From: Candidatus Udaeobacter sp.
GTDB lineage: Bacteria; Eisenbacteria; RBG-16-71-46
Length of the DNA stretch: 57,038 nucleotides
Assembly: GCA_035496475.1 (NCBI GenBank)
Contig: DATJEP010000021.1
Coordinates: forward strand, 1 to 57,038
Direction of reading: 5' to 3'
Shown in pieces: positions 4,231 through 50,400 of the stretch. Numbering within the stretch: position 1 is the stretch's first letter; every line of letters starts with the position of its first letter. The position numbers and the translations under genes are program-made. The notes below the pieces were generated by a model, which made no database searches, was not told the DNA's origin, and worked only from the letters and a program-made list of their open reading frames with translations.

Positions 4231-7184
<2,954 letters not shown>

Positions 7185-7185
<1 letters not shown>

Positions 7186-7661: not shown

Positions 7662-7671
7662 GAAGAACCTC

Positions 7672-12884: not shown

Positions 12885-12894
12885 GGAGGCAATC

Positions 12895-13794
12895 ATGTTC
12901 GACGGACTGACGGTCGCGATGGTGACGCCGTTTCGCGGCGGCGAGATCGATTACGAAGCGACCGAATCGCTGATCGACTTCATGATCGACGGCGGAGTGC
13001 AGGGCCTCGTCGTCTCGGGCTCGACCGGCGAAGCGGCGACCTGCTCGGTGGACGAGCGCCGGCGCCTGTGGGGCTTCACGAAGACGCGGGTGCGGGGCCG
13101 TGTGCCGGTGGTCGCCGGGACGGGAACGAACTCGACTTCGGAGAGCATCACGCTGACGCGCATCGCCGAAGAGATCGGTCTCGATGGGGCGATGATCGTG
13201 ACGCCGTTCTACAACAAGCCGACTCCGAAGGGCCAGATCGCGCACTTCGCCGCGGTCGCGAAGAGCACGAAACTGCCGCTCATCCTCTACAACGTGCCGG
13301 GACGGACGGCGACCAACACGCTGCCCGACACGCTGGCCGAGGTTCAGCACCTTCCGAACATCGTGGCGGTCAAGGAGGCTTCGGGCAGCCTCGACCAGGC
13401 CAGCGCGGTTCGCGCGCGCACGCGGCTGACGCTGCTCTCGGGCGACGACTCCCTGACGCTGCCGATGATCGCGATCGGCGCGACCGGCGTGGTGTCGGTC
13501 GCCGGCAACGTCGCCCCCGCGGCGATGCGGGCGCTGTGCGACCACGCCCGCGCCGGCCGGATCGCGGAAGCGGAGGCGCTGCATCGGCGGCTGATGCCGC
13601 TGTTCAAGGCGCTGTTCGTCGAGTCGAACCCGGGTCCGGTCAAGTTCCTGCTCTCGGCGATGGGCCGGATCGCGAACGAGCTGCGACTGCCGCTGGTTCC
13701 GGTCGAGCCCTCGACCGAGTCCGTGCTGCTCGCCGCCGCGGCCGCCTGCGGACTCACCACCACCGCATCGACTCCGGCCAGCGCCCGGGCATGA
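12895..13794 (+). CDS. dapA: 4-hydroxy-tetrahydrodipicolinate synthase
   Basis: MFDGLTVAMVTPF...GVQGLVVSGSTGEAAT...ILYNVPGRT...AVKEASG, with GAGGAGG upstream of ATG 12895. Confidence 0.95.
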   Translation: MFDGLTVAMVTPFRGGEIDYEATESLIDFMIDGGVQGLVVSGSTGEAATCSVDERRRLWGFTKTRVRGRVPVVAGTGTNSTSESITLTRIAEEIGLDGAMIVTPFYNKPTPKGQIAHFAAVAKSTKLPLILYNVPGRTATNTLPDTLAEVQHLPNIVAVKEASGSLDQASAVRARTRLTLLSGDDSLTLPMIAIGATGVVSVAGNVAPAAMRALCDHARAGRIAEAEALHRRLMPLFKALFVESNPGPVKFLLSAMGRIANELRLPLVPVEPSTESVLLAAAAACGLTTTASTPASARA

Positions 13795-14585
13795 TTGCGA
13801 TCGTTCTGATCGGCGCCGGAGGACGCATGGGCCGCGCGGTCGACGAGGCGGCCCGGCTGAACGACGCGTTCTCGATCCGGGCGCGGGTGGACCGCGCCGC
13901 GCCGCCGGCCGCCACGATTCCACCCGATGCGAACTCGAGCGCGGCCTCCGGGGTATGGAGCGAAGACGCCGCGAGCGTGGTGCGGGCCGGGGACGTGGTG
14001 ATCGAGTTCAGCAGTCCGGAAGGCTGCCGCACCGCCGCGAGGCTGTGCGCGGAGCGGGGCGCCGCACTGGTCAGCGGCACGACCGGCCTCGGTCCCGAGG
14101 ACGAGCGGGCGGTTCGCGAAGCCGCGGCGCGCGTGGCGGTCCTCCGGGCGGCGAACTTCAGCCTCGGCGTCGCCGCGCTCCATCGTGCGCTCGAAGCCGC
14201 GATCGCCGCGCTTCCCCCGACATGGGACATCGAGATCGTGGAGCGCCATCATCGGCGCAAGGTCGACAGTCCTTCGGGCACGGCGCTCGGGCTGGCTCGG
14301 CACGCCGGCGAGAAACGCGGACTCGGCGAGTCGGCGCTGAAGCTGGGGCGCAGCGGGCGCACGGGGGAGAGGCCGCGCGACGAGATCGGAGTGCACTCGG
14401 TGCGCGGCGGGAGTCTGGTCGGGGATCACGCCGTGCTGATCGCGGGGGATGGGGAATGGATCGAGATCAGGCACGTGGCCGAAGATCGTTCCGCCTTCGC
14501 GCATGGTGCGCTCGCCGCGGCCCGATTCGTGGCGGCCGCGAAGCCGGGCCTCTATACTATGGACCACGTGCTCGGCTCGAAGTGA
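13791..14585 (+). CDS. dapB: 4-hydroxy-tetrahydrodipicolinate reductase
   Basis: MIAIVLIGAGGRMGRAV..., ERHHRRKVDSPSGTAL, and VHSVRGGSLVGDHAVL. ATGA overlap with dapA. Confidence 0.9.
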   Translation: MIAIVLIGAGGRMGRAVDEAARLNDAFSIRARVDRAAPPAATIPPDANSSAASGVWSEDAASVVRAGDVVIEFSSPEGCRTAARLCAERGAALVSGTTGLGPEDERAVREAAARVAVLRAANFSLGVAALHRALEAAIAALPPTWDIEIVERHHRRKVDSPSGTALGLARHAGEKRGLGESALKLGRSGRTGERPRDEIGVHSVRGGSLVGDHAVLIAGDGEWIEIRHVAEDRSAFAHGALAAARFVAAAKPGLYTMDHVLGSK

Positions 14586-14625
14586 CCGCGGACCGGGCGG
14601 CCGCGAAACCCGACCCGGAGTCCCG

Positions 14626-17421
14626 ATGCGTCTGTCCCGCGCGGCGCTGATCGCGCTCCTCGCCGCGATTCCGCTCGCCGCGCCCTCCCTCGTCGGCGCG
14701 CAGGGATTCGGCAAGAACAAGGTCCAGTACGAGCCGCTCGAATGGGCGGTGCTCGAGACGCCCCACGTCCGCCTTCACTATTACGCGGAAGAAGAGAGCC
14801 TGGCGCGGCACCTCGCCGCGTTCGCCGAGAGTGTCTGCGTGGAGTACGACGCGCGCTTCCATGTCGCGCCCCGGCACCGTGTGCCGTTCCTTCTGTACTC
14901 CACGCATCACCTGTTCCAGCAGAGCAACGCGACACCTGAGCTCATCACCGAGGCGGTCGGCGGCCTGACCGAGCTGGTCAAGGGCCGCGTGCTGATTCCG
15001 CACAACGGCTCGTGGACCCGGCTGGTGTGGGTGACGCGTCACGAGCTGACCCACTGGTACATGCTGGAGAAGATCAGCCGCGTGATGCACGACCATCATC
15101 GCAGCCAGCCCTACATGCCGCCGCTGTGGTTCATCGAGGGCATCGCCGAGTACTGCGGCACGCACTGGGACGAGGACGCCGAGGGCCTCCTGCGCGACGC
15201 GGTGATGTCGGGCGAGGCGGTTCCGCTGACGAGGAGCGAGTCGATCTGGGGCTCGGTGCTGATGTACAAGGAGGGGCAGTCCTTCCTGCTCTACGTGCGC
15301 GATCACTACGGCGACTCGCGGATCTTCCAGATCTTCGAGAACTGGTGGCGGGCCGACGATTTCGAGACCGCGTTCCGGATGACGCTCGGGATTCCGTTGG
15401 CGAAGGTCGACGAGGAATGGTTCGCCTCGCTGAGGCGGCACTACTACCCGGTCGCCGCCACCGCCCAGGAGCCGCAGGAGATGTCGCGGCGGATGACGCT
15501 GCACGGCCACTACAATCTCGGACCGCGCGCGATCGCCGAGGGCGCCAAGAACGATTCGACGCTGACGTTCTGCTACTTCGCCGCGGGCGAGAACGGCATT
15601 CATCTCGTCGTCAGCGAGCCGCGCGGTCACGGCCGCCGTCGCGAGCGGCGCCTTCTGAGCGGCGGACAGTCTCCGTCCTACGAATCCTTCCACCTGTTCC
15701 AGAACCGGCCGGACGCGTCGGCCGGGCACATCGTGCTGTCGTCGAAGCACGGCGGGCGCGACGCGCTCTACGTGCTCGACGCGCGGAGCGGCGCGGTCTC
15801 GAGGCGCGCCGAGTTCCCCCAGCTGGTGGCCATCAACGATCCCTGTTTCGTTCCCGGCGATTCCGCGGTGGTGTTCTCGGCGCAGGATTATGGCGGCCGC
15901 AGTGATCTCTACCGCGTGAGCTGGCCCGGCGGCGCGGTGCGGCTGGAGCGGCTGACCGACGACGACTACGACGACCTCGATCCCGACGTCTCGCCCGACG
16001 GCCAATGGGTGGTGTTCGCCTCGGACCGCGGCGATCGGGGCGGCCGCTATTCGCTGTTCCGCCTCTCGCTCAGGGGCGGGGAACCGGAGCGGCTGAGCGA
16101 TCCGCCGCACGGCGACGACCGGCAGCCCGCCTATTCGCCGGACGGGCGCTGGATCGCGTTCCGCTCGACGCGCGACGGCACCAGCGATCTCTACATTCGA
16201 TCGACGACGCCTTCGCCGGAGGTGAGGCGCGTGTCGCGCCTGATCGGTCCGGCCAGTGATCCCGACTGGCTGCCGGGGAGCGAGGGCCTGCTCTTCACCG
16301 CCGAGAACGCGATCACGTTCCAGACCTATTCGGTGCGGTTCAAACCCGACACGCTGGCGGTCTCGACCGAAGGGCACGAGGCGCCGGCGCCCGCGCTGAC
16401 CACGCTGAGATACGACGGACCGGCGCGCCCCTACGAGCGACACCTGAGCCTCGACCTGGTGCAGAACGCGGTCGCGCTCGACCCCGTGCTCGGCACCAAC
16501 GCCGCGGCGCAGATCGCGCTCAGCGACGTGCTCGGCAACGAGCAGTATCAGATCTTCCTGGCCAACGACGGCGGGCGCTTCGGCGGCAGCTTCTGGGACG
16601 GGCTGGAGGGTTCAGTCACCTACATCAACCAGGGGCAGAGGCTGAACTACGGCGTCGGGGCGTTTCGTCTCACCGAGCTCTACGACGCCGACCTCGATCA
16701 GGTACGCCGCGAGCAGCGCGTGGGCGGGCTCGGAATCGTCAGCTATCCCTTCAATCGCTTCGACCGGATCGAAGCGACGCTGGTGCTGCGGCACGCCGAC
16801 AACCATCTGTTGCGGAGCGGAATCTTCCAGAACGAGAACCTGCTCTCGAACTATCTGACGCTGGTCCACGACAACGTGATGTGGACGCAGACCGGGCCGA
16901 GCACCGGGACGCGCGCCTTCGTTTCCGGAGGATTCACCCGCGATCTCACCTACGCGCAGGGGGACTTCGCCTCGATGCTGGCCGAGGTGCGCCACTATGA
17001 GCTGCCGGTTCCATCGCTGGTGTGGGCCTCACGCGTCCAGGGCCTGAGCAGCGCCGGCCGCGACGCGCAGCGGTTCTATCTCGGCGGCTACGGCTCGATC
17101 GCCGGCTATGACCGGCGCTCGCTCTCCGGCACGCAGACGCTGCTGGTGCAGCAGGAGCTGCGCGCCCCGCTGATCCGCGGCCTGATCGTCGCCGCCCCGG
17201 TGCCGTGGCTGCTGCCGCCGATCGGCGGTGCGGCGTTCGTTCACGGCGCGTGGGCGTGGCAGGCCGGCATTCCGGATCACCTCGGCAGCGCCGGGCTCGC
17301 GGTCTACATCGGCGGCGGTTATTTCCCGGCGTTCCGCTGGGACTACGCCTGGCTGACCAGCGACTTCAAGACGTTCACGCGGCATCCGCGCACGCAGTTC
17401 TGGATCGGCTACAACTTCTAA
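14626..17421 (+). CDS. outer-membrane fusion protein: peptidase-MA-like domain + PD40/TolB beta-propeller + Omp85-type barrel
   Basis: Signal peptide MRLSRAALIALLAAIPLAAPSLVGAQG. HELTH...WFIEGIAEY (HExxH MA clan). PD40 repeats (VSPDGQWVVFASDR, YSPDGRWIAFRSTRDG). C-terminal FYLGGYGSIAGYDRRSLSG..ELRAPL and a terminal WIGYNF beta-signal. Confidence 0.7.
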   Translation: MRLSRAALIALLAAIPLAAPSLVGAQGFGKNKVQYEPLEWAVLETPHVRLHYYAEEESLARHLAAFAESVCVEYDARFHVAPRHRVPFLLYSTHHLFQQSNATPELITEAVGGLTELVKGRVLIPHNGSWTRLVWVTRHELTHWYMLEKISRVMHDHHRSQPYMPPLWFIEGIAEYCGTHWDEDAEGLLRDAVMSGEAVPLTRSESIWGSVLMYKEGQSFLLYVRDHYGDSRIFQIFENWWRADDFETAFRMTLGIPLAKVDEEWFASLRRHYYPVAATAQEPQEMSRRMTLHGHYNLGPRAIAEGAKNDSTLTFCYFAAGENGIHLVVSEPRGHGRRRERRLLSGGQSPSYESFHLFQNRPDASAGHIVLSSKHGGRDALYVLDARSGAVSRRAEFPQLVAINDPCFVPGDSAVVFSAQDYGGRSDLYRVSWPGGAVRLERLTDDDYDDLDPDVSPDGQWVVFASDRGDRGGRYSLFRLSLRGGEPERLSDPPHGDDRQPAYSPDGRWIAFRSTRDGTSDLYIRSTTPSPEVRRVSRLIGPASDPDWLPGSEGLLFTAENAITFQTYSVRFKPDTLAVSTEGHEAPAPALTTLRYDGPARPYERHLSLDLVQNAVALDPVLGTNAAAQIALSDVLGNEQYQIFLANDGGRFGGSFWDGLEGSVTYINQGQRLNYGVGAFRLTELYDADLDQVRREQRVGGLGIVSYPFNRFDRIEATLVLRHADNHLLRSGIFQNENLLSNYLTLVHDNVMWTQTGPSTGTRAFVSGGFTRDLTYAQGDFASMLAEVRHYELPVPSLVWASRVQGLSSAGRDAQRFYLGGYGSIAGYDRRSLSGTQTLLVQQELRAPLIRGLIVAAPVPWLLPPIGGAAFVHGAWAWQAGIPDHLGSAGLAVYIGGGYFPAFRWDYAWLTSDFKTFTRHPRTQFWIGYNF

Positions 17422-17426
17422 GGAGC

Positions 17427-18689
17427 CTAGGGGAAGACGCCGATCGAGATGCCGTAGGGCTGCGAGAATCCTCCGGTGTGCTGGAGCACCACGCCGGTGG
17501 GGGAGATCACCGCCACTTCTCCGTGCGCGAGCAGCGTCACCCAGGCGTTGCCGCTCTGGGGATCGACCGCGACCTCACGCGGCTCGCCGAGGCCGGCGAC
17601 CCGGAACTCGAGCGACGCGTCACGGCGCAGCGCGACCACCGCGTTCCCCGCCGCGTCCGCCACCCAGATCCTGCCGCGTCGCGGATCGACGGCGATGCCG
17701 ATCGGCCCTGAAGCCGCGGTCGAGCTGTCACGCGTCGCGGGCGTGTTCGAGATCACGAACACCTTCCCGGTGGTGAACGAGGTGACCCACGCCGCATGAG
17801 TCACCGAGTCGACGTCGACGCGCGAGGGCGCGGCGAGATCGACCGATCCCGCCGCCGTTCCGGACACGAGGAAACGCCGGACGCGATTGCCGCCGCGCTC
17901 GCACACCCACACCGATCGATCGAGGGGATCGGTGGCGACGTCGAGCGGCTGGCTGATGCCGGAAAGCTCGAATGGCGAGGCGGAGGATCCATCGTCCTGA
18001 AAATGGCGAAGGGCGTCGAGCTGCGCATCGCAGACCCAGCCGCTCCCGTCCACGGGATCGAGCGCGATCGCGCCGGGGTCGCTGACCGCGCTGATCGACA
18101 CGCGCTGCCCCGAGGAAGGCGTGACGACGATGACGTGGCTGCTGAGGGGGTCCGAGATCCACAGGCGATCGCGTACCGCGTCGGCGGCGACGTCGCTGGG
18201 TCCGCTCACGAAGGTGTCGGTACTCAGGATGTGGTGGCCGTCGGAGGTCATCAGCTCGACCCCGGGCCGCCCATAGTCGGCCACCCACGGCATCAGCGGC
18301 CCCGGCGTCGCGTCATCCTCGGCCGGCAGCCCGCCGCTGCCGCCGGCGAACACGTAATACAGGCGATAGAAATGATCCACGCCGTTCTGCAGGCCGAAGT
18401 CGCCGCGCTGGGTCGTGCCGGCCGGGATCAGTCCGCCGAGCGCGGTGAACGTGCTCTCGCGTTCGGTCCGCCGGTAGAGCTGGTAGCCGACCAGGCCGCT
18501 GGTCTCGGTCGCGCTCCAGCGCAGCGTGACCGCCGAGTTCTGGGCCAGCGCTTCGAAGCCGGGAGGCCGCCCGCCGGTCACCGGGTTCGCGGGATCGAAG
18601 GGATTCAGCCGCTCACGCTTTCCGCAGCCGGGCAGCGCGGCCAGCGCGATCAGCGCCGCGAGCGCTAGAAGTTCAGGGCGAGGGCGCAT
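17427..18689 (-). CDS. lipoprotein with Fn3-like domain and six-bladed NHL/YncE-like beta-propeller
   Basis: Lipobox ALPGC. Fn3-like segment VTLRWSATETSGLVGYQLYRR. Six repeats of the xxWVxD type (RLWISDP, GSGWVCDA, RSVWVCER, HAAWVTSF, GRIWVADA, GNAWVTLL). Confidence 0.6.
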   Translation of the reverse strand: MRPRPELLALAALIALAALPGCGKRERLNPFDPANPVTGGRPPGFEALAQNSAVTLRWSATETSGLVGYQLYRRTERESTFTALGGLIPAGTTQRGDFGLQNGVDHFYRLYYVFAGGSGGLPAEDDATPGPLMPWVADYGRPGVELMTSDGHHILSTDTFVSGPSDVAADAVRDRLWISDPLSSHVIVVTPSSGQRVSISAVSDPGAIALDPVDGSGWVCDAQLDALRHFQDDGSSASPFELSGISQPLDVATDPLDRSVWVCERGGNRVRRFLVSGTAAGSVDLAAPSRVDVDSVTHAAWVTSFTTGKVFVISNTPATRDSSTAASGPIGIAVDPRRGRIWVADAAGNAVVALRRDASLEFRVAGLGEPREVAVDPQSGNAWVTLLAHGEVAVISPTGVVLQHTGGFSQPYGISIGVFP

Positions 18690-19087
18690 CGGCGAGAATC
18701 GAGGAGGACGCCGACGCTCGAGCCGTGCGAATGACGGATGAATCGCAGCGTGAGGCCGGTGGCGAGAAGCACGTTCCCCGTCACGAGCGAAGCGCTCGAG
18801 AGCCGGTCGAAGCGCGTGGTCCGGTCGTAGAGGTCGGTGATGCGTGCGGGATCGCTGGCCGCGAGGTATTCGTCGTAGCTGCGATCGGCCGTGCGTTCGA
18901 ACGCGAAGGAGGCCGCGATCAGCGCCACGCCCGAGACCATCGAGACGTTCGCGAGCCGGTGCGATTCGTGTCGCGTCGGGGGCACGTTGACGACCGGAAA
19001 CGGACCGGCCGTCTGCGCGAGGGCGCAGGCGGCCGGGACCAGGATTCCGCACAGAGCCGCGATGCTGCCGGCCCGGAAGCGCTTCAT
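18665..19087 (-). CDS. small secreted/outer-membrane hypothetical protein
   Basis: 140 aa with signal peptide MKRFRAGSIAALCGILVPAACALA and a C-terminal ...ALALNF. Lies 10 nt downstream of rpsT, and its 3' end overlaps the next gene by 25 nt. Confidence 0.45.
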   Translation of the reverse strand: MKRFRAGSIAALCGILVPAACALAQTAGPFPVVNVPPTRHESHRLANVSMVSGVALIAASFAFERTADRSYDEYLAASDPARITDLYDRTTRFDRLSSASLVTGNVLLATGLTLRFIRHSHGSSVGVLLDSRRCALALNF

Positions 19088-19097
19088 GCCAGGGCTC

Positions 19098-19355
19098 TCA
19101 CCCCGGAAGGCGGGCGGCGAAACGCGCCAGACGCGCCTTGTGGCGGTTGGCGGTCTCCTTCTTGATGATGCCCTTCGCGGCGCCGCGGTCGAGCACCGAG
19201 CAGGCGTTGCGATAGGCGGCCTGCGCGTCGGCGCGCGTGGTCGAGGCACGCAGATCCCGCACGGCATTGCGCATGCGGGAGCGGGCCGCGACGTTGCGGA
19301 CGCGGGCTTTCTCGTTGGTGATGACTCGCTTGGCCGCGGATTTGTGATGCGGCAT
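19098..19355 (-). CDS. rpsT: 30S ribosomal protein S20
   Basis: 85 aa, MPHHKSAAKRVITNEKARVRN...AAKGIIKKETANRHKARL. Confidence 0.95.
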   Translation of the reverse strand: MPHHKSAAKRVITNEKARVRNVAARSRMRNAVRDLRASTTRADAQAAYRNACSVLDRGAAKGIIKKETANRHKARLARFAARLPG

Positions 19356-19515
19356 GCCCTGTCCTCCGTGAGCTCCGTGAGATCGATCGAGTTCGAGCCC
19401 GAGGACACTACGGGGCCGCGCGCTTCGCTGTCAAGGCTCGCGCGATGCGAACCGCGTTGTGCGCTGGCCAAACGCGGTGTAAGGTTCCAAGCCTCGTGAA
19501 TCCTCCGAGTACCGT

Positions 19516-21393
19516 GTGGGGGTCCGATTGAGCGCGTTGGACGACAAAGTCCAGAATCTCCCTGCCGTTCCGGGGGTTTACCTGTTCAAGGACGCCTCCG
19601 GGAAGGTGCTCTATGTCGGCAAGGCCAAGAGCCTTCTGCACCGGGTCCGGAGCTATCTCAGCCTGGACAGTCCGCTTCCCCACATCGCCGAGCTGATGTC
19701 GCGTGCCGTCGACGTGGACACCATCCTGACCGACACCGAGGCCGAGGCCCTGCTGCTCGAGGCCACGCTGATCCGGCAGCATCGGCCGCACTACAACATC
19801 CTGCTCAAGGACGACAAGAGCTATCCCTACGTGAAGATCAGCGTTCAGGAGGAATTCCCGCGGCTTTCGGTCACGCGCCGGGTGCTGAACGACGGGGCCC
19901 GCTACCTCGGGCCCTACACCGACGTCAAGAGCCTGCGCCGGATGCTGCGCGAGATCCGCCGCATCTTTCCGGTCCGAACCTGCCGGAACTTCGAAGATTA
20001 TCGCCGCTCGAACCGGCCGTGCCTGTACTTCCACATTGGCCGGTGCGTCGGTCCGTGCACCACGCGCTCCAAGGTCAGCCGCGATGAATACCGGGCGCTG
20101 GTCGACGGGCTCCTCTGGTTCCTGACCGGCCGCGATCAGGAGCTGATGCACCGCCTTCGCGCCGGCATGGAAGAAGCGTCGGCCGCGCGCCGGTACGAAC
20201 AGGCGGCGCGCCTGCGCGATCAGATCGAGCTGCTCGAGAAGATGCGCGCCCCTCAGAGCGTGATGACCCTCCACGCCAAGGACGCCGACGTGCTCGGCAT
20301 CGCGCGCTTCGGCTCGCGAGCGGCGGTGGCGGCGCTGCTCCTGCGCGGCGGCCGCGTGGTGGGGAAGGAGACCCGCGTGCTCGACCATGTCGAGGGTCGC
20401 GCCGACGCCACGGTGCTGGCCTCCTTCATCGCTCAACACTACCTCGGTCTCGCGACGCCTCCGCGCCGCCTCGTCGCGGACGCGCCGCCCGAGGATCAGG
20501 AGACGCTGCTCGATGCGCTTTCGCGCCGCGCCGGCGGACGGGTCGAGCTGTCGGTGCCTCAGCGGGGACGCGAGCGGCTGCTGCTCAGGAACGCGGAGCG
20601 GAACGCCGCGCTCGCGCTCGAGGATCTCGAGGCGCGGGCGGCGGGACGACGTGCGCGACACTCGCCCGAGATGCTCGAGCTGCAGCGCCTGCTCGGATTG
20701 GCCCGCCCGCCTCAGCGCATGGTCTGCTTCGACATCTCGAACCTCGGCGCCGATCATGCGGTCGCGGCGATCGTGGCGAGCGAGAACGGCGCACCGCGCC
20801 GCGGTCTCTACCGCCGCATGCGCATCCGGCGTCCCGGTCCCGACGACTTCGCCATGATCGGCGAAGCGGTCGAGCGCTACTGGACCCGGGTCGAATCCGG
20901 CGAGATGCCGCGTCCCGATCTGGTCGTGATCGACGGCGGCCTCGGTCAGCTCGGCGCGGCGCGCGCCGCGCTCGACCGCGTGGCCACGCGGCCGGTCGAC
21001 CTGATCGCCTTGGCGAAGCGCGAGGAGACGGTGGTGCGCGAGAACGCGTCTCCTCTCCGGCTGCCGCGGCGGAGTCCCGCGCTGCGCGCGCTGCAGCGGC
21101 TGCGCGACGAGGCCCACCGGTTCGGACTTTCCTACCACCGTCTGCTGCGCACGCGCTCGCGGCTGGTGAGCGACGTCGATCGTGTCGAGGGTGTGGGTCC
21201 GGCGCGCCGCGCGGCGATGCTCAAGGCCTTCGGCTCGGTGGCGGCGTTGCGTGAGGCCGAGCCGGCCGAGATCGCGGAACGGGCTGGATTACCGCTGGCG
21301 GTCGCGGAGCGCGTGGTCCGCGTGCTGGGCGCGGCGCATGAAGCGGACGAAACGAGCGAAGGCCACGCCGCCGGCGAGCGGAGGCGCGCGTGA
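19516..21393 (+). CDS. uvrC: excinuclease ABC subunit C
   Basis: GIY-YIG start (PGVYLFKDASGKVLYVGKAKSL), a UVR domain (YEQAARLRDQIELL), and C-terminal endonuclease plus HhH regions. Confidence 0.95.
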   Translation: MGVRLSALDDKVQNLPAVPGVYLFKDASGKVLYVGKAKSLLHRVRSYLSLDSPLPHIAELMSRAVDVDTILTDTEAEALLLEATLIRQHRPHYNILLKDDKSYPYVKISVQEEFPRLSVTRRVLNDGARYLGPYTDVKSLRRMLREIRRIFPVRTCRNFEDYRRSNRPCLYFHIGRCVGPCTTRSKVSRDEYRALVDGLLWFLTGRDQELMHRLRAGMEEASAARRYEQAARLRDQIELLEKMRAPQSVMTLHAKDADVLGIARFGSRAAVAALLLRGGRVVGKETRVLDHVEGRADATVLASFIAQHYLGLATPPRRLVADAPPEDQETLLDALSRRAGGRVELSVPQRGRERLLLRNAERNAALALEDLEARAAGRRARHSPEMLELQRLLGLARPPQRMVCFDISNLGADHAVAAIVASENGAPRRGLYRRMRIRRPGPDDFAMIGEAVERYWTRVESGEMPRPDLVVIDGGLGQLGAARAALDRVATRPVDLIALAKREETVVRENASPLRLPRRSPALRALQRLRDEAHRFGLSYHRLLRTRSRLVSDVDRVEGVGPARRAAMLKAFGSVAALREAEPAEIAERAGLPLAVAERVVRVLGAAHEADETSEGHAAGERRRA

Positions 21394-22346
21394 GCCACGC
21401 GGCGACCTCGTCGTCTCGGGAGGCGGCGCGGCGCGCCCGCGCCGTTCCATCGCCGGCGCTCGACCCGTCGCTCGAGGGATTCCTCGATCACCTGCGCACC
21501 GGACGTCGGATGAGCGCGAACACCGTCGATGCGTACGCGCGCGATCTCTCCGACTACCGGACGTTCGCCCTGCGCCACGCGCTGACCGGCTGGAACCAGG
21601 TGACCCCGGCATTCGTCGACGGCTACTTCGCGCTGCTGATGAAGCGCGGGCTGTCGGGCGCCACCGTGGCGCGGCGTCGATCCGCGCTGCGCGGATTCCA
21701 CGCCTGGCTCGAAGCGCGCGGCGATGGCGGCGCGCACGGGCTCGCCGAGCTGCCGCCGCCGCGGCGCGAGCGACGGCTTCCGCACGCGCTCCCGGTCGAC
21801 GAGATCGAGCGGCTGCTGGCGCAGCCCGCGCTCGACCGCCCGCTGGGCCTGCGCGATCGCGCGCTGCTCGAGCTCGCGTACGCCAGCGGCCTGCGCGTGT
21901 CCGAGCTCTGCGGCCTCCGCCGGCATCAGCTCACGATGTCGGATCGCACCGTGACCGTGACCGGCAAGGGCGGGAAGCAGCGCAGCGTGCCGTTCGGGCG
22001 CGCGGCGGAGAGCGCGCTGGAGGAATGGCTGGAACGGGGCCGGCCCATTCTGGCGGCGCGATCCCGCAGCGACACGGTATTCGTCAATCGCCGGGGCACC
22101 GCGCTCTCACGGATGGGATTCTGGAAAATCCTGCGCGGGCACGCGCGCGCCGCCGGCATCGCCTCCCGCGTGCACCCGCACGTGCTGCGTCATTCGTTCG
22201 CGACCCATCTGCTCGAAGGCGGCGCCGATCTTCGCGTGGTGCAGGAGCTGCTCGGCCACGCCTCGGTCTCGACCACCGCCATCTACACGCATCTCGATCG
22301 CGGCTACCTGCGCGAGGTCCATCGCAGCTTTCACCCCCGAGCCTGA
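21390..22346 (+). CDS. xerD: tyrosine recombinase XerD
   Basis: FLDHLRTGRRMSANTVDAYARDLSDY...LRVSELCGL...HVLRHSFATHLLEGGADLRVVQELLGHASVSTTAIYTHL. Overlaps the uvrC stop. Confidence 0.85.
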   Translation: MSHAATSSSREAARRARAVPSPALDPSLEGFLDHLRTGRRMSANTVDAYARDLSDYRTFALRHALTGWNQVTPAFVDGYFALLMKRGLSGATVARRRSALRGFHAWLEARGDGGAHGLAELPPPRRERRLPHALPVDEIERLLAQPALDRPLGLRDRALLELAYASGLRVSELCGLRRHQLTMSDRTVTVTGKGGKQRSVPFGRAAESALEEWLERGRPILAARSRSDTVFVNRRGTALSRMGFWKILRGHARAAGIASRVHPHVLRHSFATHLLEGGADLRVVQELLGHASVSTTAIYTHLDRGYLREVHRSFHPRA

Positions 22347-22378: not shown

Positions 22379-22984
22379 ATGAGGAGTCGAAACGTCTGGT
22401 GGTGCCTGACGGTGATGGCGATCGCGGCCGTGGAGGCGCGTTCCGCGGCGGCCGCGCTGCCGCTGGTGCTGCCGCGCCCCGGCCAGATCGGATTCTCGCT
22501 GCAGGGTCAGGTCAGCGACTTCGTGAAGACCGGACTTCTCGGTAAGGAGTTCGGTAGCGGAGGCGGGATCGCGGTTCGGGTGCGCTATCGGATGCGTTAC
22601 GAGCGCGCGCTCGGGCTCTCGTTCGAGGCGGTGAACCTCGACGCGCGCGCTCCGGCCGACTCGTCCACCGCCCGCACGCGGCTCAACATGCTGCTGTCGG
22701 GGGCGGACGTCTACCAGATGTTCAACACCGATTCGCGCACGCAGGGGATGATCAACCTGAGCGCCGGGCTCGCCCAGGTTCACTATTCCCTGCGCGACGG
22801 CGAGACCGAATATCCGAACGAGGGCGACGGCGTCTACGTCGCGGCCGGCGGCGGCGTGGAGCGCTTCTTCTATCGCAGCCTGGCGTTCGATCTCAGCGCC
22901 CGCTATCTGGCGGTCGTCCATGGCGGCAAGACCAACCACGGCCTGAACGCTTCGGCCGGTCTGATCTTCTACGCGAGCTACTGA
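22379..22984 (+). CDS. small outer-membrane beta-barrel protein
   Basis: Signal peptide, alternating beta-strand pattern, and an aromatic C-terminus (GLIFYASY). Confidence 0.55.
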   Translation: MRSRNVWWCLTVMAIAAVEARSAAAALPLVLPRPGQIGFSLQGQVSDFVKTGLLGKEFGSGGGIAVRVRYRMRYERALGLSFEAVNLDARAPADSSTARTRLNMLLSGADVYQMFNTDSRTQGMINLSAGLAQVHYSLRDGETEYPNEGDGVYVAAGGGVERFFYRSLAFDLSARYLAVVHGGKTNHGLNASAGLIFYASY

Positions 22985-23030
22985 TCATGCGTCGCGTCCC
23001 GCACCACGCCGCCCGACCGGAGGCTCCGCG

Positions 23031-24998
23031 ATGGAGATGACGGCGACGCGCTACCAGATCGGGCAGCGGCTCCGCCATCCGCATTTCGGCGAGGGTCTGG
23101 TGGTCGAGGTCCACACCGATCGCGGACGTGAAGTGCTCGAGGTGGTGTTCGACGGGGAGCTGCGCCGGCTCTCGGCGCAGCGCGACTGGGAGGTGGTCGA
23201 AGGCAGCGCGCCGCTCCTGCCCGAGCCGACCGGGGGAGACTCGCTCCCGCCGCCGCCCGGCGCGCTCACGCGCCACTGGCATCCTCAGGGCGACGCGCTG
23301 CTCCGGAAGTGGCGCGGGGGAGAGGCCGGATCGTCGGTGCACTTCGACCTTCGCTCATCGGCGGAGCGCTGGGCGGGATGGGCCGGCACCGACCACCTGA
23401 TCTCGCTCGACTCGCTGCGCGGCGTGGAGCGATTCCCGCACCAGATCCGCGCATGCCTCAAGGTCATGCGTGACCTCAACGGCCGCGGCATCCTGGCCGA
23501 CGAGGTCGGACTGGGCAAGACCATCGAGGCCGGAATCGTGGTCAAGGAGTATCTGCTGCGCGGCGCGGTGCGCACGGTGCTGGTGCTGGTGCCGGCGTCG
23601 CTGTGTGAGCAGTGGCGGGCCGAGTTGTGGGAGAAGTTCGAGCTCGACTTCGTCGTGTCGCGCGGGCCGGCCGGTCAATGGGGCCGTCATCCGCTCGTCA
23701 TCTCGTCGCTCGAGACCGCGCGTCACGAGCGTCATCGCCGCCGCGTGCGCGGCGCGAACTACGATCTGGTGGTGGTGGACGAGGCCCATCGCCTGCGCAA
23801 TCACCTGACGCTGGGGTGGAAGTTCATCAACGACCTCAATCCCCGCTACCTGCTGCTCCTGACCGCGACGCCGGTGCAGAACGACATGCGCGAGCTCTAC
23901 AACCTGGCCACGCTGGTGCGTCCGGGCACGGTTGGCACGTTCTCGCAGTTCCGGCGAGACTTCCTGAGCGGCCACGACAAACGGACGCCGCGCAACACGC
24001 CGCGGCTGCGCGGGCTGCTGGAGTCGGTGATGATCCGCACACGACGCGTCGACACCGACCTCACGTTCGCGCCGCGCAAGGTCGAGACGCTTTGGGTCGG
24101 CCAGACTCCGCCGGAGCGGAAGCTCTACCGAGACGTCAGCGACTTCGTGGCCGAGTCGGTCGCCGCCGACATCGGGCAGCCCGGCCGGCCGCACTACTTC
24201 ACGCTGATCGTCCTGCAGAAGGAGATGGGCTCGTCGTGGAACGCGGCGCGGGCCACGCTGGAAAAACTGGCCCGCCATCCCGATGGGCTGGACCAGAAGA
24301 AGCTGCGCGCGCTCGGCGCCCGCGCCGCCGAGGCCAGCCAGAGTCCGAGCAAGGTACGCTCGCTGCTGCGCTGCATCGGCTCGCTGGGTGGCGAGAAGTG
24401 CATCGTCTTCACCCAGTTCCGCTCGACCCAGGATGCGATCGTCGGCGCGCTGCGGGCGATCGGCACCGAGCCCGCGGTGTTCCATGGCGAGCTCGGCTGG
24501 CGCGAGAAGGAAGAGGCGCTCGAGACGTTCCGCACCACCGCGCCGGTGCTGGTCAGCACCGAGGCCGGAGGAGAGGGGCGCAACCTCCAGTTCTGCCGCA
24601 TCGTCATCAACTACGACCTGCCGTGGAATCCCATGCGCCTCGAGCAGCGCATCGGCCGCGTGCACCGGCTCGGCCAGGAGCATCCGGTGCGGGTGATCAA
24701 CCTCGCCGCGCGCGGAACCATCGAGGCCTACGTGCTCGAGATCCTCGATCGCAAGATCCGCATGTTCGAGCTGGTGGTCGGCGAGATGGAAGAGATCCTC
24801 GGCACCTGGCAGCCCCACGCATCGTTCGAGGACGAAGTGTTCCGTCGCTGGACCGAGTCCACCAATCCGCGCGCGCGCAAGCGCCGCTTCGCCGAGCTGG
24901 CCCAGCAGCTCGGACTGGCGCGGCGCATGTACCAGGAACAGAAGGACCGGCAGCAGTGGCTGTTCCCGGCCCCGCGCGAAGAGGAGAGCGGATCATGA
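23031..24998 (+). CDS. SNF2-family (RapA/HepA-like) helicase/translocase with Tudor-like N-domain
   Basis: Motif I ILADEVGLGKTIEAG, motif II VVVDEAHRLRN, and C-terminal helicase motifs (LVSTEAGGEGRNLQ, QRIGRVHRLGQ). The N-terminal YQIGQRLRHPHFGEGLVVEV... resembles the UvrD/PcrA-type Tudor fold. Confidence 0.9.
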   Translation: MEMTATRYQIGQRLRHPHFGEGLVVEVHTDRGREVLEVVFDGELRRLSAQRDWEVVEGSAPLLPEPTGGDSLPPPPGALTRHWHPQGDALLRKWRGGEAGSSVHFDLRSSAERWAGWAGTDHLISLDSLRGVERFPHQIRACLKVMRDLNGRGILADEVGLGKTIEAGIVVKEYLLRGAVRTVLVLVPASLCEQWRAELWEKFELDFVVSRGPAGQWGRHPLVISSLETARHERHRRRVRGANYDLVVVDEAHRLRNHLTLGWKFINDLNPRYLLLLTATPVQNDMRELYNLATLVRPGTVGTFSQFRRDFLSGHDKRTPRNTPRLRGLLESVMIRTRRVDTDLTFAPRKVETLWVGQTPPERKLYRDVSDFVAESVAADIGQPGRPHYFTLIVLQKEMGSSWNAARATLEKLARHPDGLDQKKLRALGARAAEASQSPSKVRSLLRCIGSLGGEKCIVFTQFRSTQDAIVGALRAIGTEPAVFHGELGWREKEEALETFRTTAPVLVSTEAGGEGRNLQFCRIVINYDLPWNPMRLEQRIGRVHRLGQEHPVRVINLAARGTIEAYVLEILDRKIRMFELVVGEMEEILGTWQPHASFEDEVFRRWTESTNPRARKRRFAELAQQLGLARRMYQEQKDRQQWLFPAPREEESGS

Positions 24999-30457: not shown

Positions 30458-31399
30458 TCAGCCGATCGTGAGCTCGAGCTGCTCCGGCTCCTCGGGCGGA
30501 TGGAGCTTCACCGTCCGTCGATCGGCGATGCCTTCCTGCCGGCGCAGCTCGGCGACCCGAAGACGCAGCGGCTCGGTCTCGCGGGCGGGCAGATAGGCGC
30601 GCCCGGCATAGAGTTTCTCGTAACGCTCGCGCTCCTCGGGCCAGTCGCGCTCGAGATGATCGAGAAAATGTTCGCGCGTTCCGGGACGCAGGTAGAGCAG
30701 GTGCGCTCCGATTCCGGTGGCGCCCGCCGCGCGCGCCGCGCGGATCACGGCCGCCAGCTGATCGGGGCGGTCCGAGAGGCCGGGCAGGATCGGCGCCATC
30801 AGGACACGGGCGTGGATTCCGGCCGCCACCAGCCGGCTCAGCGCCTTGAGCCGCGCCTCAGGACGCGGTGTTCCGGGCTCGGTCGTGCGCCACACGTGCT
30901 CATCCAGCGTCGGGACCGAGAAACACACCGAGACCTCGGCGCGCGTGGCCGCTCGCGTCAGAACGTCGAGGTCGCGAACGATCAGGGGCCCGCGCGTGAT
31001 GATGCTGAACGGGGTGCGTCCATCGCCGAGCGCCTCGATGCAGGCCCGGGTCAGCCGGAAGCGGCCTTCGGCCGGCTGATAGGGATCGGTCGCGGCGCCG
31101 ATCGCCACGCCTTCGCGCATCCACGAGGGACGCGAGAGCTCGAAGCGAAGAACGTCCGCGATGTTGGTCTTGACGCGCACGACCTCGCCGTAGCGGTCGT
31201 CGGACGGACGGTCGGCGCGCCGCTCGAACGCCCGCACGTAACAGAACGTGCAGCGATGGCCGCAGCCCATGTACGGGTTCAGGGACCACTTGAAGGGCAT
31301 CCCGCTGACCCGGTTGAGGGCGCTGCGGCAGGGCTCGAGGCGGTAGGCACTGCGCATATGTGCAGTATAGCGCAGCCCGCAAGGGTTCGCGTGATCCAT
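30458..31399 (-). CDS. radical SAM protein (SplB / DNA-repair-photolyase-like, COG1533 type)
   Basis: LNPYMGCGHRCTFCYV CxxxCxxC cluster motif, about 310 aa. Confidence 0.8.
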   Translation of the reverse strand: MDHANPCGLRYTAHMRSAYRLEPCRSALNRVSGMPFKWSLNPYMGCGHRCTFCYVRAFERRADRPSDDRYGEVVRVKTNIADVLRFELSRPSWMREGVAIGAATDPYQPAEGRFRLTRACIEALGDGRTPFSIITRGPLIVRDLDVLTRAATRAEVSVCFSVPTLDEHVWRTTEPGTPRPEARLKALSRLVAAGIHARVLMAPILPGLSDRPDQLAAVIRAARAAGATGIGAHLLYLRPGTREHFLDHLERDWPEERERYEKLYAGRAYLPARETEPLRLRVAELRRQEGIADRRTVKLHPPEEPEQLELTIG

Positions 31400-31425
31400 G
31401 TCGCATAATCGATATTATGTAAACC
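31398..31425. other. dif: candidate dif site (XerC/XerD chromosome dimer resolution site)
   Basis: ATGTCGCATAA-TCGATA-TTATGTAAACC has the 11-6-11 layout. The inner XerC arm CGCATAA equals E. coli dif, and the XerD arm is 10/11 to B. subtilis dif as I remember them. It is AT-rich in a GC-rich genome and lies next to the gene-orientation switch. Confidence 0.7.
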
Positions 31426-31514
31426 TACGCACGGCGAAACGGCCGGGACCAGCCGTGGGAACTCACCGCGCCTGCAGCGCCGCTTCCCCGCTGTGAAGCG
31501 CGGTCAGGACGCGG

Positions 31515-33977
<2,463 letters not shown>

Positions 33978-44504: not shown

Positions 44505-45326
44505 TCATCGCGGGCGCGGGCGCCGCAGCGCGCGCGAGACCGGCACCGAGCCGTGAATGACCACCGGGCTCGAGACCCGGATCGAGTCCATTCCGCTCGC
44601 GCGGATCACGCCCTGCGTCAGGGACGACGCGGGTGAGCCCGGCCCCGCGATCCGGAGCTCGTCTCCGGTCACCGTGCTGTCGCGAGCGCTCGCGGCGTGG
44701 CGAATCCGGATCTGGGTCGGCTTGTCGTACCGCCAGATCAGCTGAAGACCGCCCATCGGCTGCAGCTCGCCGCGCACGCCGTCCGGCCAGTCCCCGACCT
44801 CGGCGATCTCGCCGGTGGGACGCGAGTCCGACTGCCAGACCACGCTGCCATGATCGGCCACGACGACCCCGACGCGCGGGTTGAGGGTCTTCGGCAGCGA
44901 CGCCGACACGGCAAGGTACGCGATCGCGGGCTTCTTCGGCACCACGTGCGTGACGCGGACGCTGAGCGGCGAGAGTGCTCCCTCGCGCGTCGCGTTCCCG
45001 ATCACCCGCGCGCTCGACGAGCTCACGCGGGCGAGCGCTTCCAGCCAGGGGCCCGTCACCCCCTCCCGCACCGACGGGTCGAGATCGAGCGAGAACGAGC
45101 GGGCAGGCGATACGGCAAGGGAGGCGCCGAATTCCGTCGAGGCCGGTTCGGCCGGAAGAACGGTGCGAATCGTATCGGAGTCGGTTCGCGCATCGAGCAG
45201 GCTGTGCGCCAGCGGGCAGAGATCGATGCCGTTCAGCGGGCGGCAGGGCTCGGCCCGGCCGACGGCGGCGCCGGCAACCAGGGTCAGGAGCAGGACACCG
45301 AAACGGATCCATCGGCCGTTCATCAT
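44505..45326 (-). CDS. hypothetical secreted protein
   Basis: N-terminal signal-like MMNGRWIRFGVLLLTLVAGAAVGRA and GGAGG before the ATG. No recognisable motif. Occupies the slot after trpB. Confidence 0.45.
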   Translation of the reverse strand: MMNGRWIRFGVLLLTLVAGAAVGRAEPCRPLNGIDLCPLAHSLLDARTDSDTIRTVLPAEPASTEFGASLAVSPARSFSLDLDPSVREGVTGPWLEALARVSSSSARVIGNATREGALSPLSVRVTHVVPKKPAIAYLAVSASLPKTLNPRVGVVVADHGSVVWQSDSRPTGEIAEVGDWPDGVRGELQPMGGLQLIWRYDKPTQIRIRHAASARDSTVTGDELRIAGPGSPASSLTQGVIRASGMDSIRVSSPVVIHGSVPVSRALRRPRPR

Positions 45327-45407
45327 CTACCTCCCGGCCGGGACATGCCGGCCCACGCGGCCGTGAACGACGTCGTGGCTCGATCCACTCCGTCGTGAAG
45401 CCCGGCC

Positions 45408-46625
45408 TCAACCGCGGCCGAGCACCCTCAGCACCTCGCTCACGTCCTTGTCGCCGCGTCCCGACAGATTCACGATCAGTCGGGCCTTGCGCGGGAACGT
45501 TCTGCCTTCACGCAGCACCCAGGCGATCGCGTGCGCGCTCTCGAGTGCCGGCAGGATGCCCTCGAGACGCGACAGCTGCTGAAACGCCTCGAGCGCCTCC
45601 GCGTCGGTGGCCGACGAGTATTCCGCCAGGCCCTGCGACGCCAGCCAGGCGTGCTCGGGGCCGAGCGCGGGATAGTCGAGTCCGGCCGACACCGAGTGCG
45701 TCTCGCGGATCATCCCCTGCTCGTCCTGGAGCACGAGCGTACGCGTGCCGTGCAGCACGCCGACGCTCTGCTCGGCCATGCGAGCGGCGTGCTTCCCGCT
45801 TGCGATGCCGTGGCCGCCGGCCTCGACGCCGATCTTTCGCACCTCGCGGTCGCCGAGGAACGCATGGAAGAGTCCGATCGCGTTGCTCCCACCCCCCACG
45901 CACGCGACCAGCGCGGCCGGCGATCCTCCGGCCTGCTCGGCGAACTGTGCCCGCGCTTCCTCTCCGATCACGCGATGAAAATCACGCACCATCATCGGGA
46001 AGGGGTGCGGCCCCAGCACCGAGCCCAGCACGTAGTGCGTGTCGCGAACCCGGGTGACCCAGTCGCGCAGCGCCTCGTTGATGGCGTCCTTCAGCGTGCG
46101 ACTGCCGGCGTCGACACCGCGCACCTCGGCGCCGAGCAGCTTCATGCGCTCGACGTTGAGATGCTGCCGCCGCATGTCCTCGACTCCCATGTACACGCAG
46201 CACTCGAGCCCGAAGCGCGCCGCCGCCGCCGCGGTCGCGACGCCATGCTGCCCGGCGCCGGTCTCGGCGATGACCCGCGGCTTGCCCATCCGCCGCGCCA
46301 GCAGGCACTGGCCGATCGTGTTGTTGATCTTGTGCGCGCCGGTGTGAAGCAGATCCTCGCGCTTGAGGAACACGCGGCAGCCCGCGGCCTCGGAGAGGCG
46401 CGGCGCTTCGATCAACGGCGTCGGCCGCCCGGCGAAATCCCGCAGCTCCGCGGCCAGCAGTTTCTGGAAGGCCGGATCGGAGCGCGCACGGCGGTATTCG
46501 GATTCGAGCTGATCGAGCGCGACGATCAGGGTCTCGGGGACGAAGCGGCCGCCATAGGGTCCGAAGTGTCCGGTGGCGTCGGGGGCCGTGGCCGCGGCCG
46601 CGTCGGTCAAGCGCGGCGGGGTCAT
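45408..46625 (-). CDS. trpB: tryptophan synthase beta chain (TrpB1 type)
   Basis: [22 protein letters not shown] (PLP Lys), and [12 protein letters not shown]. Confidence 0.96.
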
Positions 46626-47281
46626 GGGCGCCGTCCACGCACGCGAATTTCGACGTCACGCACCGCGCTCACGAAGCGCCGCACGCGCCCGGCATCCTTG
46701 ATCCCGGGCTGGCTCTCCAGCCGCGACGATGCGTCCACGCCGTAGGGATTCACGCGCTCGATCGCCTCGGCGACGTTGTCAGGTCCGAGCCCCCCGGCGA
46801 GCAGCACCGCGCGCGCTCCCGCCACGGCGATCGCGGCGTCCCAGGGAAACGTCTCTCCCGTTCCGCCCGCGCGATGCGGGTGGGCGCTGTCGAGCATGAG
46901 CAGGTGGCGGGGGTCGGGCAGCGGCGATGGGATCCCGCGGTCGCTCCCGACCGGAACCACGATCGCGGCGGGCAGCGGGAACTCCGCCGGCCACGTGATC
47001 GGCGGGCGATGGATCTGGACGCGCTGGACTCCGGCGCGCGTCGCGATCGCGAGCGCTTCTTCGGGCGTGACGCCGACCATCACCGCGACGCGCGTCAGCT
47101 CGGGAACGGCGGCGCCGATCTCGGCAGCCTGTTCCGGAGTGATTCGGCGCGGACTCTCGCCGTGGACGATGAAGCCGATCCAGTCGGCGCCGGCGTCCCG
47201 GGCCACGCGGGCATCCTCGATCCGCGTGATGCCGCAGACCTTGACGATGGTCCGGGCCAGGGGCCGCCGCGTCTCGATCAC
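46622..47281 (-). CDS. trpF: phosphoribosylanthranilate isomerase
   Basis: [12 protein letters not shown]...GADWIGFIV...[15 protein letters not shown] overlap with trpB. Confidence 0.9.
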
Positions 47282-47282
47282 G

Positions 47283-48095
47283 TCAGCCCCGCGCGGCGGC
47301 GATCAGCGTGCCGAGCGCGGCGCCGGGGTCGCCGCTCTTCATCAGCACCTCTCCCATCAGCACCGCGTCGCAGCGTGTGGCGCGGAGGCGCGCGAGGTCC
47401 TCGGGCGTCGAGATCCCGCTCTCGGCCACCGCGGTCACCATCGGCGGAACCAGCGGCAGCAAGTCGAGCGCGGTCTCGAGCCGCACTTCGAAGGTCCGGA
47501 GGTCGCGGTTGTTGACGCCGACCAGCGTCGCGCCGGAGCGCAGCGCCACGCGCAGCTCGGCGGCGGTGTGGACCTCGACCAGGCAGTCGAGGCCGACCAG
47601 GCGCGCCTCGGTGATCAGACGCTGGAGCTGGGTCTCCGAGAGCAGCGCCGCGATGAGGAGGATGCCATCGGCGCCGCGCACCGCGGCGTCGAGGATCTGG
47701 TACGAGTCGAGCATGAAATCCTTGAGCAGGATCGGGATCGTGACCTGTGGACGCACCGCGTTCACCCACTCGAGCTCGCCCTGGAAATGATCCGGCTCGG
47801 TCACGATCGAGATCGCCGAGGCGCCCGAGCGCTGGTAGAGCGTCGCCATCGCCACCGGATCGAGATCGGCGCGGAGCACGCCGCGCGAAGGCGACGCGCG
47901 CTTGATCTCGCACAGCAGCTTGAGCGGAGCGCCGGCGCCGCTGCGGCGGAGCGCGCGCTCGAGCCGGCCGGCCGGCTGGATCCGCGGCAGCCGCTCGCGC
48001 AGGCGATGGGCCGGCTGAGCGACCTGCAGCGCCGCGATGCGCCGGCGCCGGTCGTCGGCGATGCGCGACAGGAAATCGGTCCGGCTCGCGCTCAT
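47283..48095 (-). CDS. trpC: indole-3-glycerol-phosphate synthase
   Basis: CEIKRASPSRG...ISIVTEP..F.G......PILLKDF...VGVNNRDLRTFEV. Confidence 0.93.
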   Translation of the reverse strand: MSASRTDFLSRIADDRRRRIAALQVAQPAHRLRERLPRIQPAGRLERALRRSGAGAPLKLLCEIKRASPSRGVLRADLDPVAMATLYQRSGASAISIVTEPDHFQGELEWVNAVRPQVTIPILLKDFMLDSYQILDAAVRGADGILLIAALLSETQLQRLITEARLVGLDCLVEVHTAAELRVALRSGATLVGVNNRDLRTFEVRLETALDLLPLVPPMVTAVAESGISTPEDLARLRATRCDAVLMGEVLMKSGDPGAALGTLIAAARG

Positions 48096-48772: not shown

Positions 48773-48808
48773 GATCGCCTCCCCGCCGCGCGAAGCGGCT
48801 CGGATGCT

Positions 48809-49816: not shown

Positions 49817-50400
49817 CGCGCCACCTTCTGCTGCCGGCACAGCGTGAGGAAGTTCTCGATCAGGCGCAGGCCCGGCCGCGTCAGCACCGACTCGGGGTGG
49901 AACTGCACGCCCCAGGTCTCGTGGTCGCGGTGCTTGAGCGCCATGATCTCGCCCTCGGGCGTCCACGCCGTGACTTCGAGCACGTCGGGCAGGCCGTCGC
50001 GCTCGACGATCAGGGAGTGGTAGCGCGTGGCCTCGAACGGATTGTCGAGACCGGCGAAGATTCCGCGGCCGCGATGCAGGATCGGGCTGGTCTTGCCGTG
50101 CATGAGCCGCGGCGCGCGCACGATCCTGCCGCCATAGACCTCGCCGATCGCCTGGTGGCCGAGGCAGACGCCGAGCACCGGCACCTGCCCCGCCAGCTTG
50201 CGCACGGCCTCTTCCGAGATCCCGGCGTCGCGCGGCTCGCCGGGCCCGGGCGAGATCAGCAGTCCCTCGAGAGGCTTGCGCGCCAGCGCGGCGACGTCGA
50301 TGGCGTCGTTGCGATAGACCTCGATCGTCGCGCCCAGCGTGCCGAGGTACTGAACGAGGTTGTAGGTGAAGGAATCGTAGTTGTCGATGACCGCGATCAT
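49813..50400 (-). CDS. trpG: anthranilate synthase component II (glutamine amidotransferase)
   Basis: [19 protein letters not shown]...[10 protein letters not shown]...VQFHPES. Confidence 0.95.

Follow-up and report, generated by a model that had tools for sequence, protein, structure and literature searches.

Genes and features at the locus

We analyzed a 57,038-nucleotide stretch of DNA, referred to here as the window, which lies within a 356,587-bp JGI metagenome contig (sample 3300045391). The contig carries the housekeeping genes secA, topA, dapF, dapA, uvrC, leuS, holA, lptE, the trp operon, a recN-like gene and dxs, which indicates that it is chromosomal. The nearest labelled relatives are mostly Candidatus Eisenbacteria/Eiseniibacteriota, and one metagenome-assembled genome among them (L069/P0201) is labelled Limnocylindria. 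The host is probably an uncultured high-GC soil bacterium of the candidate phylum Eisenbacteria.

The feature under study is a 28-bp site on the + strand at positions 31398-31425, with the sequence ATGTCGCATAATCGATATTATGTAAACC. It is composed of an XerC-type arm of 11 bp (ATGTCGCATAA, 31398-31408), a central spacer of 6 bp (TCGATA, 31409-31414) and an XerD-type arm of 11 bp (TTATGTAAACC, 31415-31425). The XerD-type arm faces leuS. The inner parts of the arms, CATAA and TTATG, form inverted repeats around the 6-bp center. The G+C content of the site is 9/28 (32%), compared to about 70% across the window. The sequence-only reading of this DNA had described an AT-rich 28-mer with an 11-6-11 layout at this position, and its sequence and coordinates are exact.

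On the right, the conserved neighbor of the site is leuS, which encodes leucyl-tRNA synthetase (31515-33977, − strand; identified by Pfam and synteny). Its stop codon is located 89 nt from the XerD-type arm. On the left, the neighbor is more variable. In the window it is a radical-SAM gene of the Rv2578c family (‘DNA repair photolyase’) on the − strand, at 30458-31357 after correction of its start; this gene is absent in the related locus L028. The open reading frame at 30458-31399 was called 14 codons too long, and the JGI call is 313 amino acids. An ATG is present at 31399-31397 on the − strand. However, another database entry for the same gene and its homologs have 298-304 amino acids, and conservation begins at residue 15 of that reading frame. 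The true start is most likely the ATG at 31357, 40 nt from the XerC-type arm, as judged from these comparisons. The 2-nt overlap between the site and the radical-SAM ATG, which had been claimed earlier, is thus probably an artefact of the over-long reading frame. With the start at 31357, the site is wholly intergenic, in a 157-nt spacer (31358-31514). Rfam, promoter and terminator scans of this spacer region found nothing relevant to the motif.

An 18-bp palindrome, ACTGCGCATATGTGCAGT, straddles the corrected start codon of the radical-SAM gene (31349-31366). It has the form CTG-N10-CAG and resembles a LexA/SOS box, and a TATACT is found just upstream of it on the − strand. The longer form ACTG-N10-CAGT occurs in the window at this position only, and the palindrome is kept in the related loci L001, L002 and L154. 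Possibly it acts as an SOS operator on a gene with a short leader or none.

Further to the left, a GH57 glycoside hydrolase gene (+ strand, ending at 29019) meets an aldehyde dehydrogenase gene (− strand, ending at 29032). Gene orientation converges at this boundary, 2.4 kb from the site, in agreement with the approximate distance given by the sequence-only reading. Far to the right is the trp operon (44505-51863, − strand), with trpE, a 544-residue trpD-containing protein, trpC, trpF and trpB. A gene for an RDD-family zinc-ribbon membrane protein (48092-48772) is inserted between trpD and trpC. A 273-residue reading frame occupies the position expected for trpA (44505-45326); a Pfam search with it gave no match.

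Two genes for tyrosine recombinases are found on the + strand to the left of the site. The first encodes an XerC-like protein of 294 residues (10130-11014); it follows topA immediately, at a distance of 20.4 kb from the site. The second encodes an XerD-like protein of 318 residues (21390-22346), directly after uvrC and 9.05 kb from the site. These measurements match the distances of about 20 and 9 kb noted before. In both the topA-xerC and the uvrC-xerD pairs, the stop and start codons overlap.

The XerD-like protein contains the Pfam domains Phage_integrase and Phage_int_SAM_1. It scores 331.9 bits on NCBIfam NF001399 (tyrosine recombinase subfamily), above the cutoff of 279. On the XerD model TIGR02225 it scores 322 bits (cutoff 329.6), versus 311 bits on the XerC model. 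The XerC-like protein scores 302.8 bits on the XerC model TIGR02224 (cutoff 335), versus 261 bits on the XerD model. Neither protein quite reaches its NCBIfam equivalog cutoff (XerC or XerD), and the assignment of the 318-residue protein to XerD rather than XerC relies on a small score difference. Its best relative of solved structure is E. coli XerD (1A0P), with 198 bits. The GLR, GKGxK, LRHxFATHLL and LLGH...YTH motifs are aligned between the two, and the C-terminal region contains HPRA. The R, K, H-x-x-R, H and Y motifs of the XerC-like protein also align to 1A0P, and the catalytic R-K-H-R-H-Y residues are complete in both proteins.

The block secA-topA-xerC-Big5-dapF-dapA-...-uvrC-xerD (7456-22346 in the window, 1-10963 in L123) is syntenic in relatives. 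L123, which belongs to a 3.62-Mb contig (ERZ25039554 contig_2423) with xerD at about 850 kb, has the order secA-topA-xerC-...-uvrC-xerD-...-GH57 / aldehyde dehydrogenase, with topA adjacent to xerC as in the window. In L125, xerD is located 9.9 kb from its own copy of the site. The XerD homologs P0201 and P0185 are probably encoded on the contigs of L069 and L154, because their longest contigs match these in length (23,947 and 55,859 bp, respectively). A survey of predicted dif sites reported that xerC tends to be located near dif and xerD near the origin (Kono et al., 2011; PMC3025954). The close linkage of xerD to the site is mildly unusual for this reason.

Two further observations come from comparing this region with relatives. 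A gene for a β-CASP/metallo-β-lactamase RNase of about 468 residues is present between the small gene following xerD and the SNF2 helicase gene in L123 (11648-13060), L124 (11614-13020) and L125 (11601-13004); it is missing from the equivalent position in the window (22984-23031). The topA reading frame in the window (7456-10137, 893 residues) overlaps another reading frame (7011-7661), and its match to the topoisomerase I model starts only at residue 145. Relatives have a DUF494 gene between secA and a topA of 816 residues, suggesting that topA in the window probably starts further downstream.

The 28-bp site and its conservation in relatives

To score the site we used a log-odds weight matrix made from 46 distinct published dif predictions; the closest of these, the Heliobacterium site, was excluded. 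The 28-mer scores 38.0 bits on the + strand, which falls within the range of the training sites (28.7-61.0 bits). The next-best position elsewhere in the window scores 6.8 bits, and the best of 200 composition-preserving shuffles reaches 12.0 bits. The score on the − strand is 13.3 bits, which makes the orientation of the site clear: the XerC-type arm is the left one and the XerD-type arm the right one. The 28-mer occurs once in the 57-kb window when up to three mismatches are permitted, and 0 of 100 shuffles contain a match. A search with the relaxed core RCATAA-N6-TTATGT and up to two mismatches also returned the site as the sole match in the window.

Four relatives were identified through neighboring proteins, with no use of the motif itself. 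L001 and L002 were found with the radical-SAM protein (87% and 76% identical to that of the window), L154 with LeuS (80%) and L125 with XerD (75%). Positions 3-11 and 18-27 of the site are invariant among these four loci and the window. The spacers differ: TCGATA in the window, TTGATA in L001 and L154, TTTCTA in L002 and GAGCTA in L125. The flanking DNA is about 50% alike in the same comparison. Invariant arms around a free center are the expected signature of an Xer site and support its identification as dif.

The location of the site is conserved as well. The order GH57 / (aldehyde dehydrogenase/radical SAM) / site / leuS is also found in L001, L002, L154, L061, L069 and L125. The site is kept at leuS and/or GH57, at or near the convergent gene boundary (0-2.4 kb away), across LeuS identities of 45-90%. 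Its orientation relative to leuS and GH57 is constant in every syntenic locus in which it can be read. In L061, L069 and L100 the site is located in the spacer between leuS and the radical-SAM gene, as in the window. In L010 and L119 it is located just past GH57. L028, a Candidatus Eisenbacteria locus with 45% LeuS identity, lacks both the radical-SAM and the aldehyde dehydrogenase genes, and its site is located directly between the convergent GH57 and leuS. Eight of the loci (L006, L012, L028, L034, L061, L069, L100 and L103) were found with the pattern of arms described below, so that their arms are conserved by construction, and we used only their positions and spacers. In the syntenic loci L123 and L124 the site was not found in the DNA examined, which ends 230-350 nt past the aldehyde dehydrogenase gene. 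A leuS-based scan of metagenomes listed matches mostly from other phyla (52-69% identity); of the matches listed, only L154 is close.

L002 shows an additional feature next to its site (3502-3545, read on the − strand). An inverted partial copy of the XerD-type arm, GGTTTACAT, is located about 20 nt beyond that arm, and together the arm and its copy make up the outer section of a long hairpin (ATGTAAACCGCCGGGC ... GCCCGGTGGTTTACAT). Either a leuS terminator recruiting the arm or the remnant of a second half-site could account for this hairpin.

A pattern consisting of the arms alone, TCGCATAA-N6-TTATGTAAAC, searched with one genome per species, matches at least 120 loci in many phyla. The 120 matches listed come from 120 different genomes, one match each. 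Among them, the positions left free in the pattern are far from random: 103/120 have T at position 28, 102/120 have A at position 17, and (T/G)ATATA predominates as the spacer. With free positions so strongly non-random, we take the matches to be real dif sites of one widespread class present in many phyla.

Dif-like sites were also observed 20-116 nt downstream of leuS on three contigs from other lineages of lower G+C content, whose LeuS is 54-62% identical (L134 8525-8552, L132 2734-2761 and L164 6746-6773). The GC-rich background inflates the matrix scores of AT-rich loci, which were left unused; only the L134 site, ACTACGCATAAGATATATTATGTAAACA, is convincing. The adjacency of leuS and dif may be much older than the host lineage.

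Taken together, these results uphold the sequence-only reading of the 28-mer as dif. The evidence consists of the matrix score, a match of 26/28 bases to a published prediction, conserved arms around a variable spacer in relatives, a position and orientation kept beside leuS and GH57, and catalytically complete XerC- and XerD-like genes on the same contig. Judging from sequence comparison, we have high confidence that the 28-mer is the chromosomal dif site of the host bacterium.

The probable replication terminus region and alternative readings

The arrangement of genes around the site is strongly asymmetric. From 35 to 29019, at least 17 of 19 genes are on the + strand, whereas from 29032 to 56776 all genes and a tRNA-Arg are on the − strand, in line with the orientation switch reported earlier. 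These counts are based on open reading frames called by third-position G+C content together with the JGI calls. About 44 of 47 genes over the 57 kb point towards the site. This very strong bias exceeds the usual level of most Gram-negative bacteria, and suggests that the genes of this lineage are strongly co-oriented with replication. The distance of 2.4 kb between the site and the convergence point is explained by two genes that lie between the site and the ancestral convergence point, since the site in L028 sits directly between GH57 and leuS.

The nucleotide skew is less informative. In the window, the GC skew is +0.0125 left of the site (z 1.85) and −0.002 right of it, which has the expected sign but is weak and by itself not significant. 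In relatives, read in the orientation of the window, all of the left arms (8/8 loci) have positive skew and most of the right arms (4/6) negative skew. Because the loci share their genes they are non-independent, and gene strand is confounded with arm. The two counter-oriented genes in the left arm still have positive + strand skew (z about 1.5), which no more than hints that skew goes with the arm and not with the gene. Among 6- to 8-mers, those with the strongest skew (such as GAGCTG and GCTGCT) look codon-derived and are inseparable from gene strand. The KOPS motif of the E. coli type, GGGNAGGG, has four occurrences in the window with no polarity; motifs of E. coli and B. subtilis occur too seldom here to be judged.

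The distance between dif and the skew shift point in Proteobacteria and Firmicutes amounts to 0-1.39% of the genome at 1 sigma (Kono et al., 2011; PMC3025954). Together with the dif site itself and the convergent genes pointing at it, this makes it likely, by analogy with those phyla, that the window lies in the replication terminus region. Replication forks would then probably meet within the window. The earlier claim joined a dif site to a window spanning the terminus. Its first half stands, and its second half is consistent with our results, as a reasonable reading of the site and the convergent genes.

It is also conceivable that the site is a genuine dif but that the forks meet outside the 57-kb window, with the skew shift point tens to hundreds of kb away. 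Replication termination has been placed near dif and not at dif, and in genomes of low skew, for example those of Acidobacteria, the difference between dif and the shift point amounts to 20-27% of replichore length as defined in that study (Kono et al., 2011; PMC3025954). Within the window, too, no clean sign change of the GC skew is seen. The narrow dif-to-shift-point distances in Proteobacteria and Firmicutes, the abrupt change to convergent gene orientation 2.4 kb from the site, with nearly all genes pointing towards it, and the skew signs in the non-independent related loci nonetheless speak against such a displacement. We consider it a possible but somewhat unlikely arrangement.

A second alternative is that the motif is an attachment scar, or pseudo-dif, of a mobile element that uses XerCD (IMEX), and that the functional dif is elsewhere. 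The gene content on the left of the site does vary among relatives (radical SAM and aldehyde dehydrogenase, radical SAM and a peptidase, aldehyde dehydrogenase only, or nothing), and a viral contig with 68% G+C, L217, has a site with identical arms. However, the window and each related locus contain a single dif-like site, with no flanking second copy as would result from integration. The site also remains a neighbor of the housekeeping gene leuS in relatives with as little as 45% LeuS identity, and phage or mobile genes were not found among the annotated genes of the window. An origin as an integration scar is therefore very improbable. The reading of the AT-rich palindrome as an operator or promoter element of the radical-SAM gene is the least credible of all: the site is located 40 nt upstream of the corrected start and has TATAAT-like hexamers, but it persists where that gene is absent (L028, L125, L010 and L119), it is found at distances of 48 to 115 nt from the gene start whereas the palindrome at 31349-31366 is fixed there, a consensus scan found no promoter-like site, and invariant arms of 9-10 bp around a free 6-bp center are the pattern of an Xer site.

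The viral contig deserves a description of its own. L217 (IMGVR_UViG_3300045051_000991) is 39,467 bp long. Its site is on the − strand at 7453-7480 and reads ATGTCGCATAA-TGGGCA-TTATGTAAACC. The arms equal those of the window even at positions 1-3 and 28, with a different spacer between them. The site is located in a gap free of open reading frames. The locus shares no genes with the window and encodes a RusA-like resolvase and a phage DNA methyltransferase. The arms pattern is found in 59 IMG/VR contigs. The L217 site may be the attachment site of a phage that exploits XerCD of the host lineage. If this is true, L217 would be a non-filamentous, integrating phage dependent on XerCD. A broader proposal is that xerC, xerD and dif form a conserved terminus-proximal block of about 20 kb (topA-xerC ... 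uvrC-xerD ... GH57 / dif / leuS) and, at the same time, that the dif of the lineage is exploited by this phage of about 39 kb. This combined proposal is speculative, and we regard it as doubtful.

Predicted dimer resolution and comparison with known Xer systems

The identification of the 28-mer as dif suggests how it would function, by analogy with XerCD-dif of E. coli and B. subtilis. XerC would bind the left arm, ATGTCGCATAA, and XerD the right arm, TTATGTAAACC. The two dif copies of a chromosome dimer would meet at the division septum. XerC and XerD, activated by FtsK, would exchange strands in turn across TCGATA, and the exchange would resolve the dimer to monomers. Binding and cleavage of the 28-mer by XerC and XerD, and dependence on FtsK, are thus what we infer from the known systems. 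The ftsK gene was not found among the annotated genes of the window.

The site provides a chromosome landmark, placed by inference in the terminus region, for a candidate phylum known solely from metagenomes. In these bacteria it should be useful for orienting and closing metagenome-assembled genomes, for checking assemblies and for recognizing mobile elements that depend on XerCD. In the literature library searched, no paper mentions Eisenbacteria and dif together. The site is very probably a canonical XerCD dif, ordinary in its mechanism as far as its sequence can tell, and the new aspect is the lineage that carries it. It leaves the understanding of how Xer recombination works unchanged.

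The E. coli system is similar in several respects. Its dif (GGTGCGCATAA TGTATA TTATGTTAAAT) has the same length of 28 bp and the same 11-6-11 layout, and the inner CGCATAA and TTATGT are identical to those of the window. It likewise employs paired XerC and XerD paralogs, and the location of the site is likewise consistent with the terminus. The xerC and xerD genes of E. coli are far from dif, whereas here both are less than 21 kb away. The outer part of the XerD arm is TAAAT in E. coli and AAACC here, and the spacers differ (TGTATA versus TCGATA). The E. coli-type KOPS also does not show polarity in the window. The CGCATAA shared with E. coli dif, which was pointed out in the sequence-only reading, agrees with the E. 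coli-type sequence GGTGCGCATAATGTATATTATGTTAAAT in a published table (Kono et al., 2011; PMC3025954).

The right arm is closer to that of the Firmicutes. The dif of the B. subtilis/Firmicutes type (ACTTCCTAGAA TATATA TTATGTAAACT), which is recombined by CodV/RipX, contains the XerD arm TTATGTAAAC, identical to that of the window except for the last base. The single difference claimed earlier is likewise confirmed by the published B. subtilis dif, ACTTCCTAGAATATATATTATGTAAACT (PMC3025954). The XerC arm differs: it contains CCTAGAA in the Firmicutes type, and in the window it is of the proteobacterial kind, TCGCATAA. The Firmicutes-type XerD arm is common to many non-proteobacterial phyla (Kono et al., 2011; PMC3025954). 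In the table of the same survey, the right arms of the predicted dif sites of Pelobacter and Syntrophus are TTATGTAAACC, identical to that of the window.

The closest published sequence is the predicted dif of Heliobacterium modesticaldum, ATTTCGCATAATCGATATTATGTAAACT, which shares 26 of 28 bases with the window, including the spacer TCGATA (PMC3025954, suppl. 2). This organism belongs to an unrelated phylum, and its dif is a prediction only. In its genome, that predicted site and the skew shift point are far apart (delta 42.7; Kono et al., 2011; PMC3025954).

Single-recombinase systems, XerS/difSL and XerH/difH, resemble the window in that the recombinase gene is physically linked to the site. 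They consist of one recombinase beside an atypical site, whereas here two paralogs of the XerC/XerD type are located 9 and 20 kb away. The recombinases of the window score 82-96 bits on the XerS model, compared to its cutoff of 267.

Xer sites of the cer/psi type occur on plasmids and combine a center of 7-8 bp with about 180 bp of accessory sequence. A cer-type plasmid site was considered and excluded, given the 6-bp spacer and the 356-kb contig with housekeeping genes. Compared to these known systems, the predicted dif of the window combines an XerC arm of the proteobacterial kind with an XerD arm that is common in Firmicutes and many other phyla.
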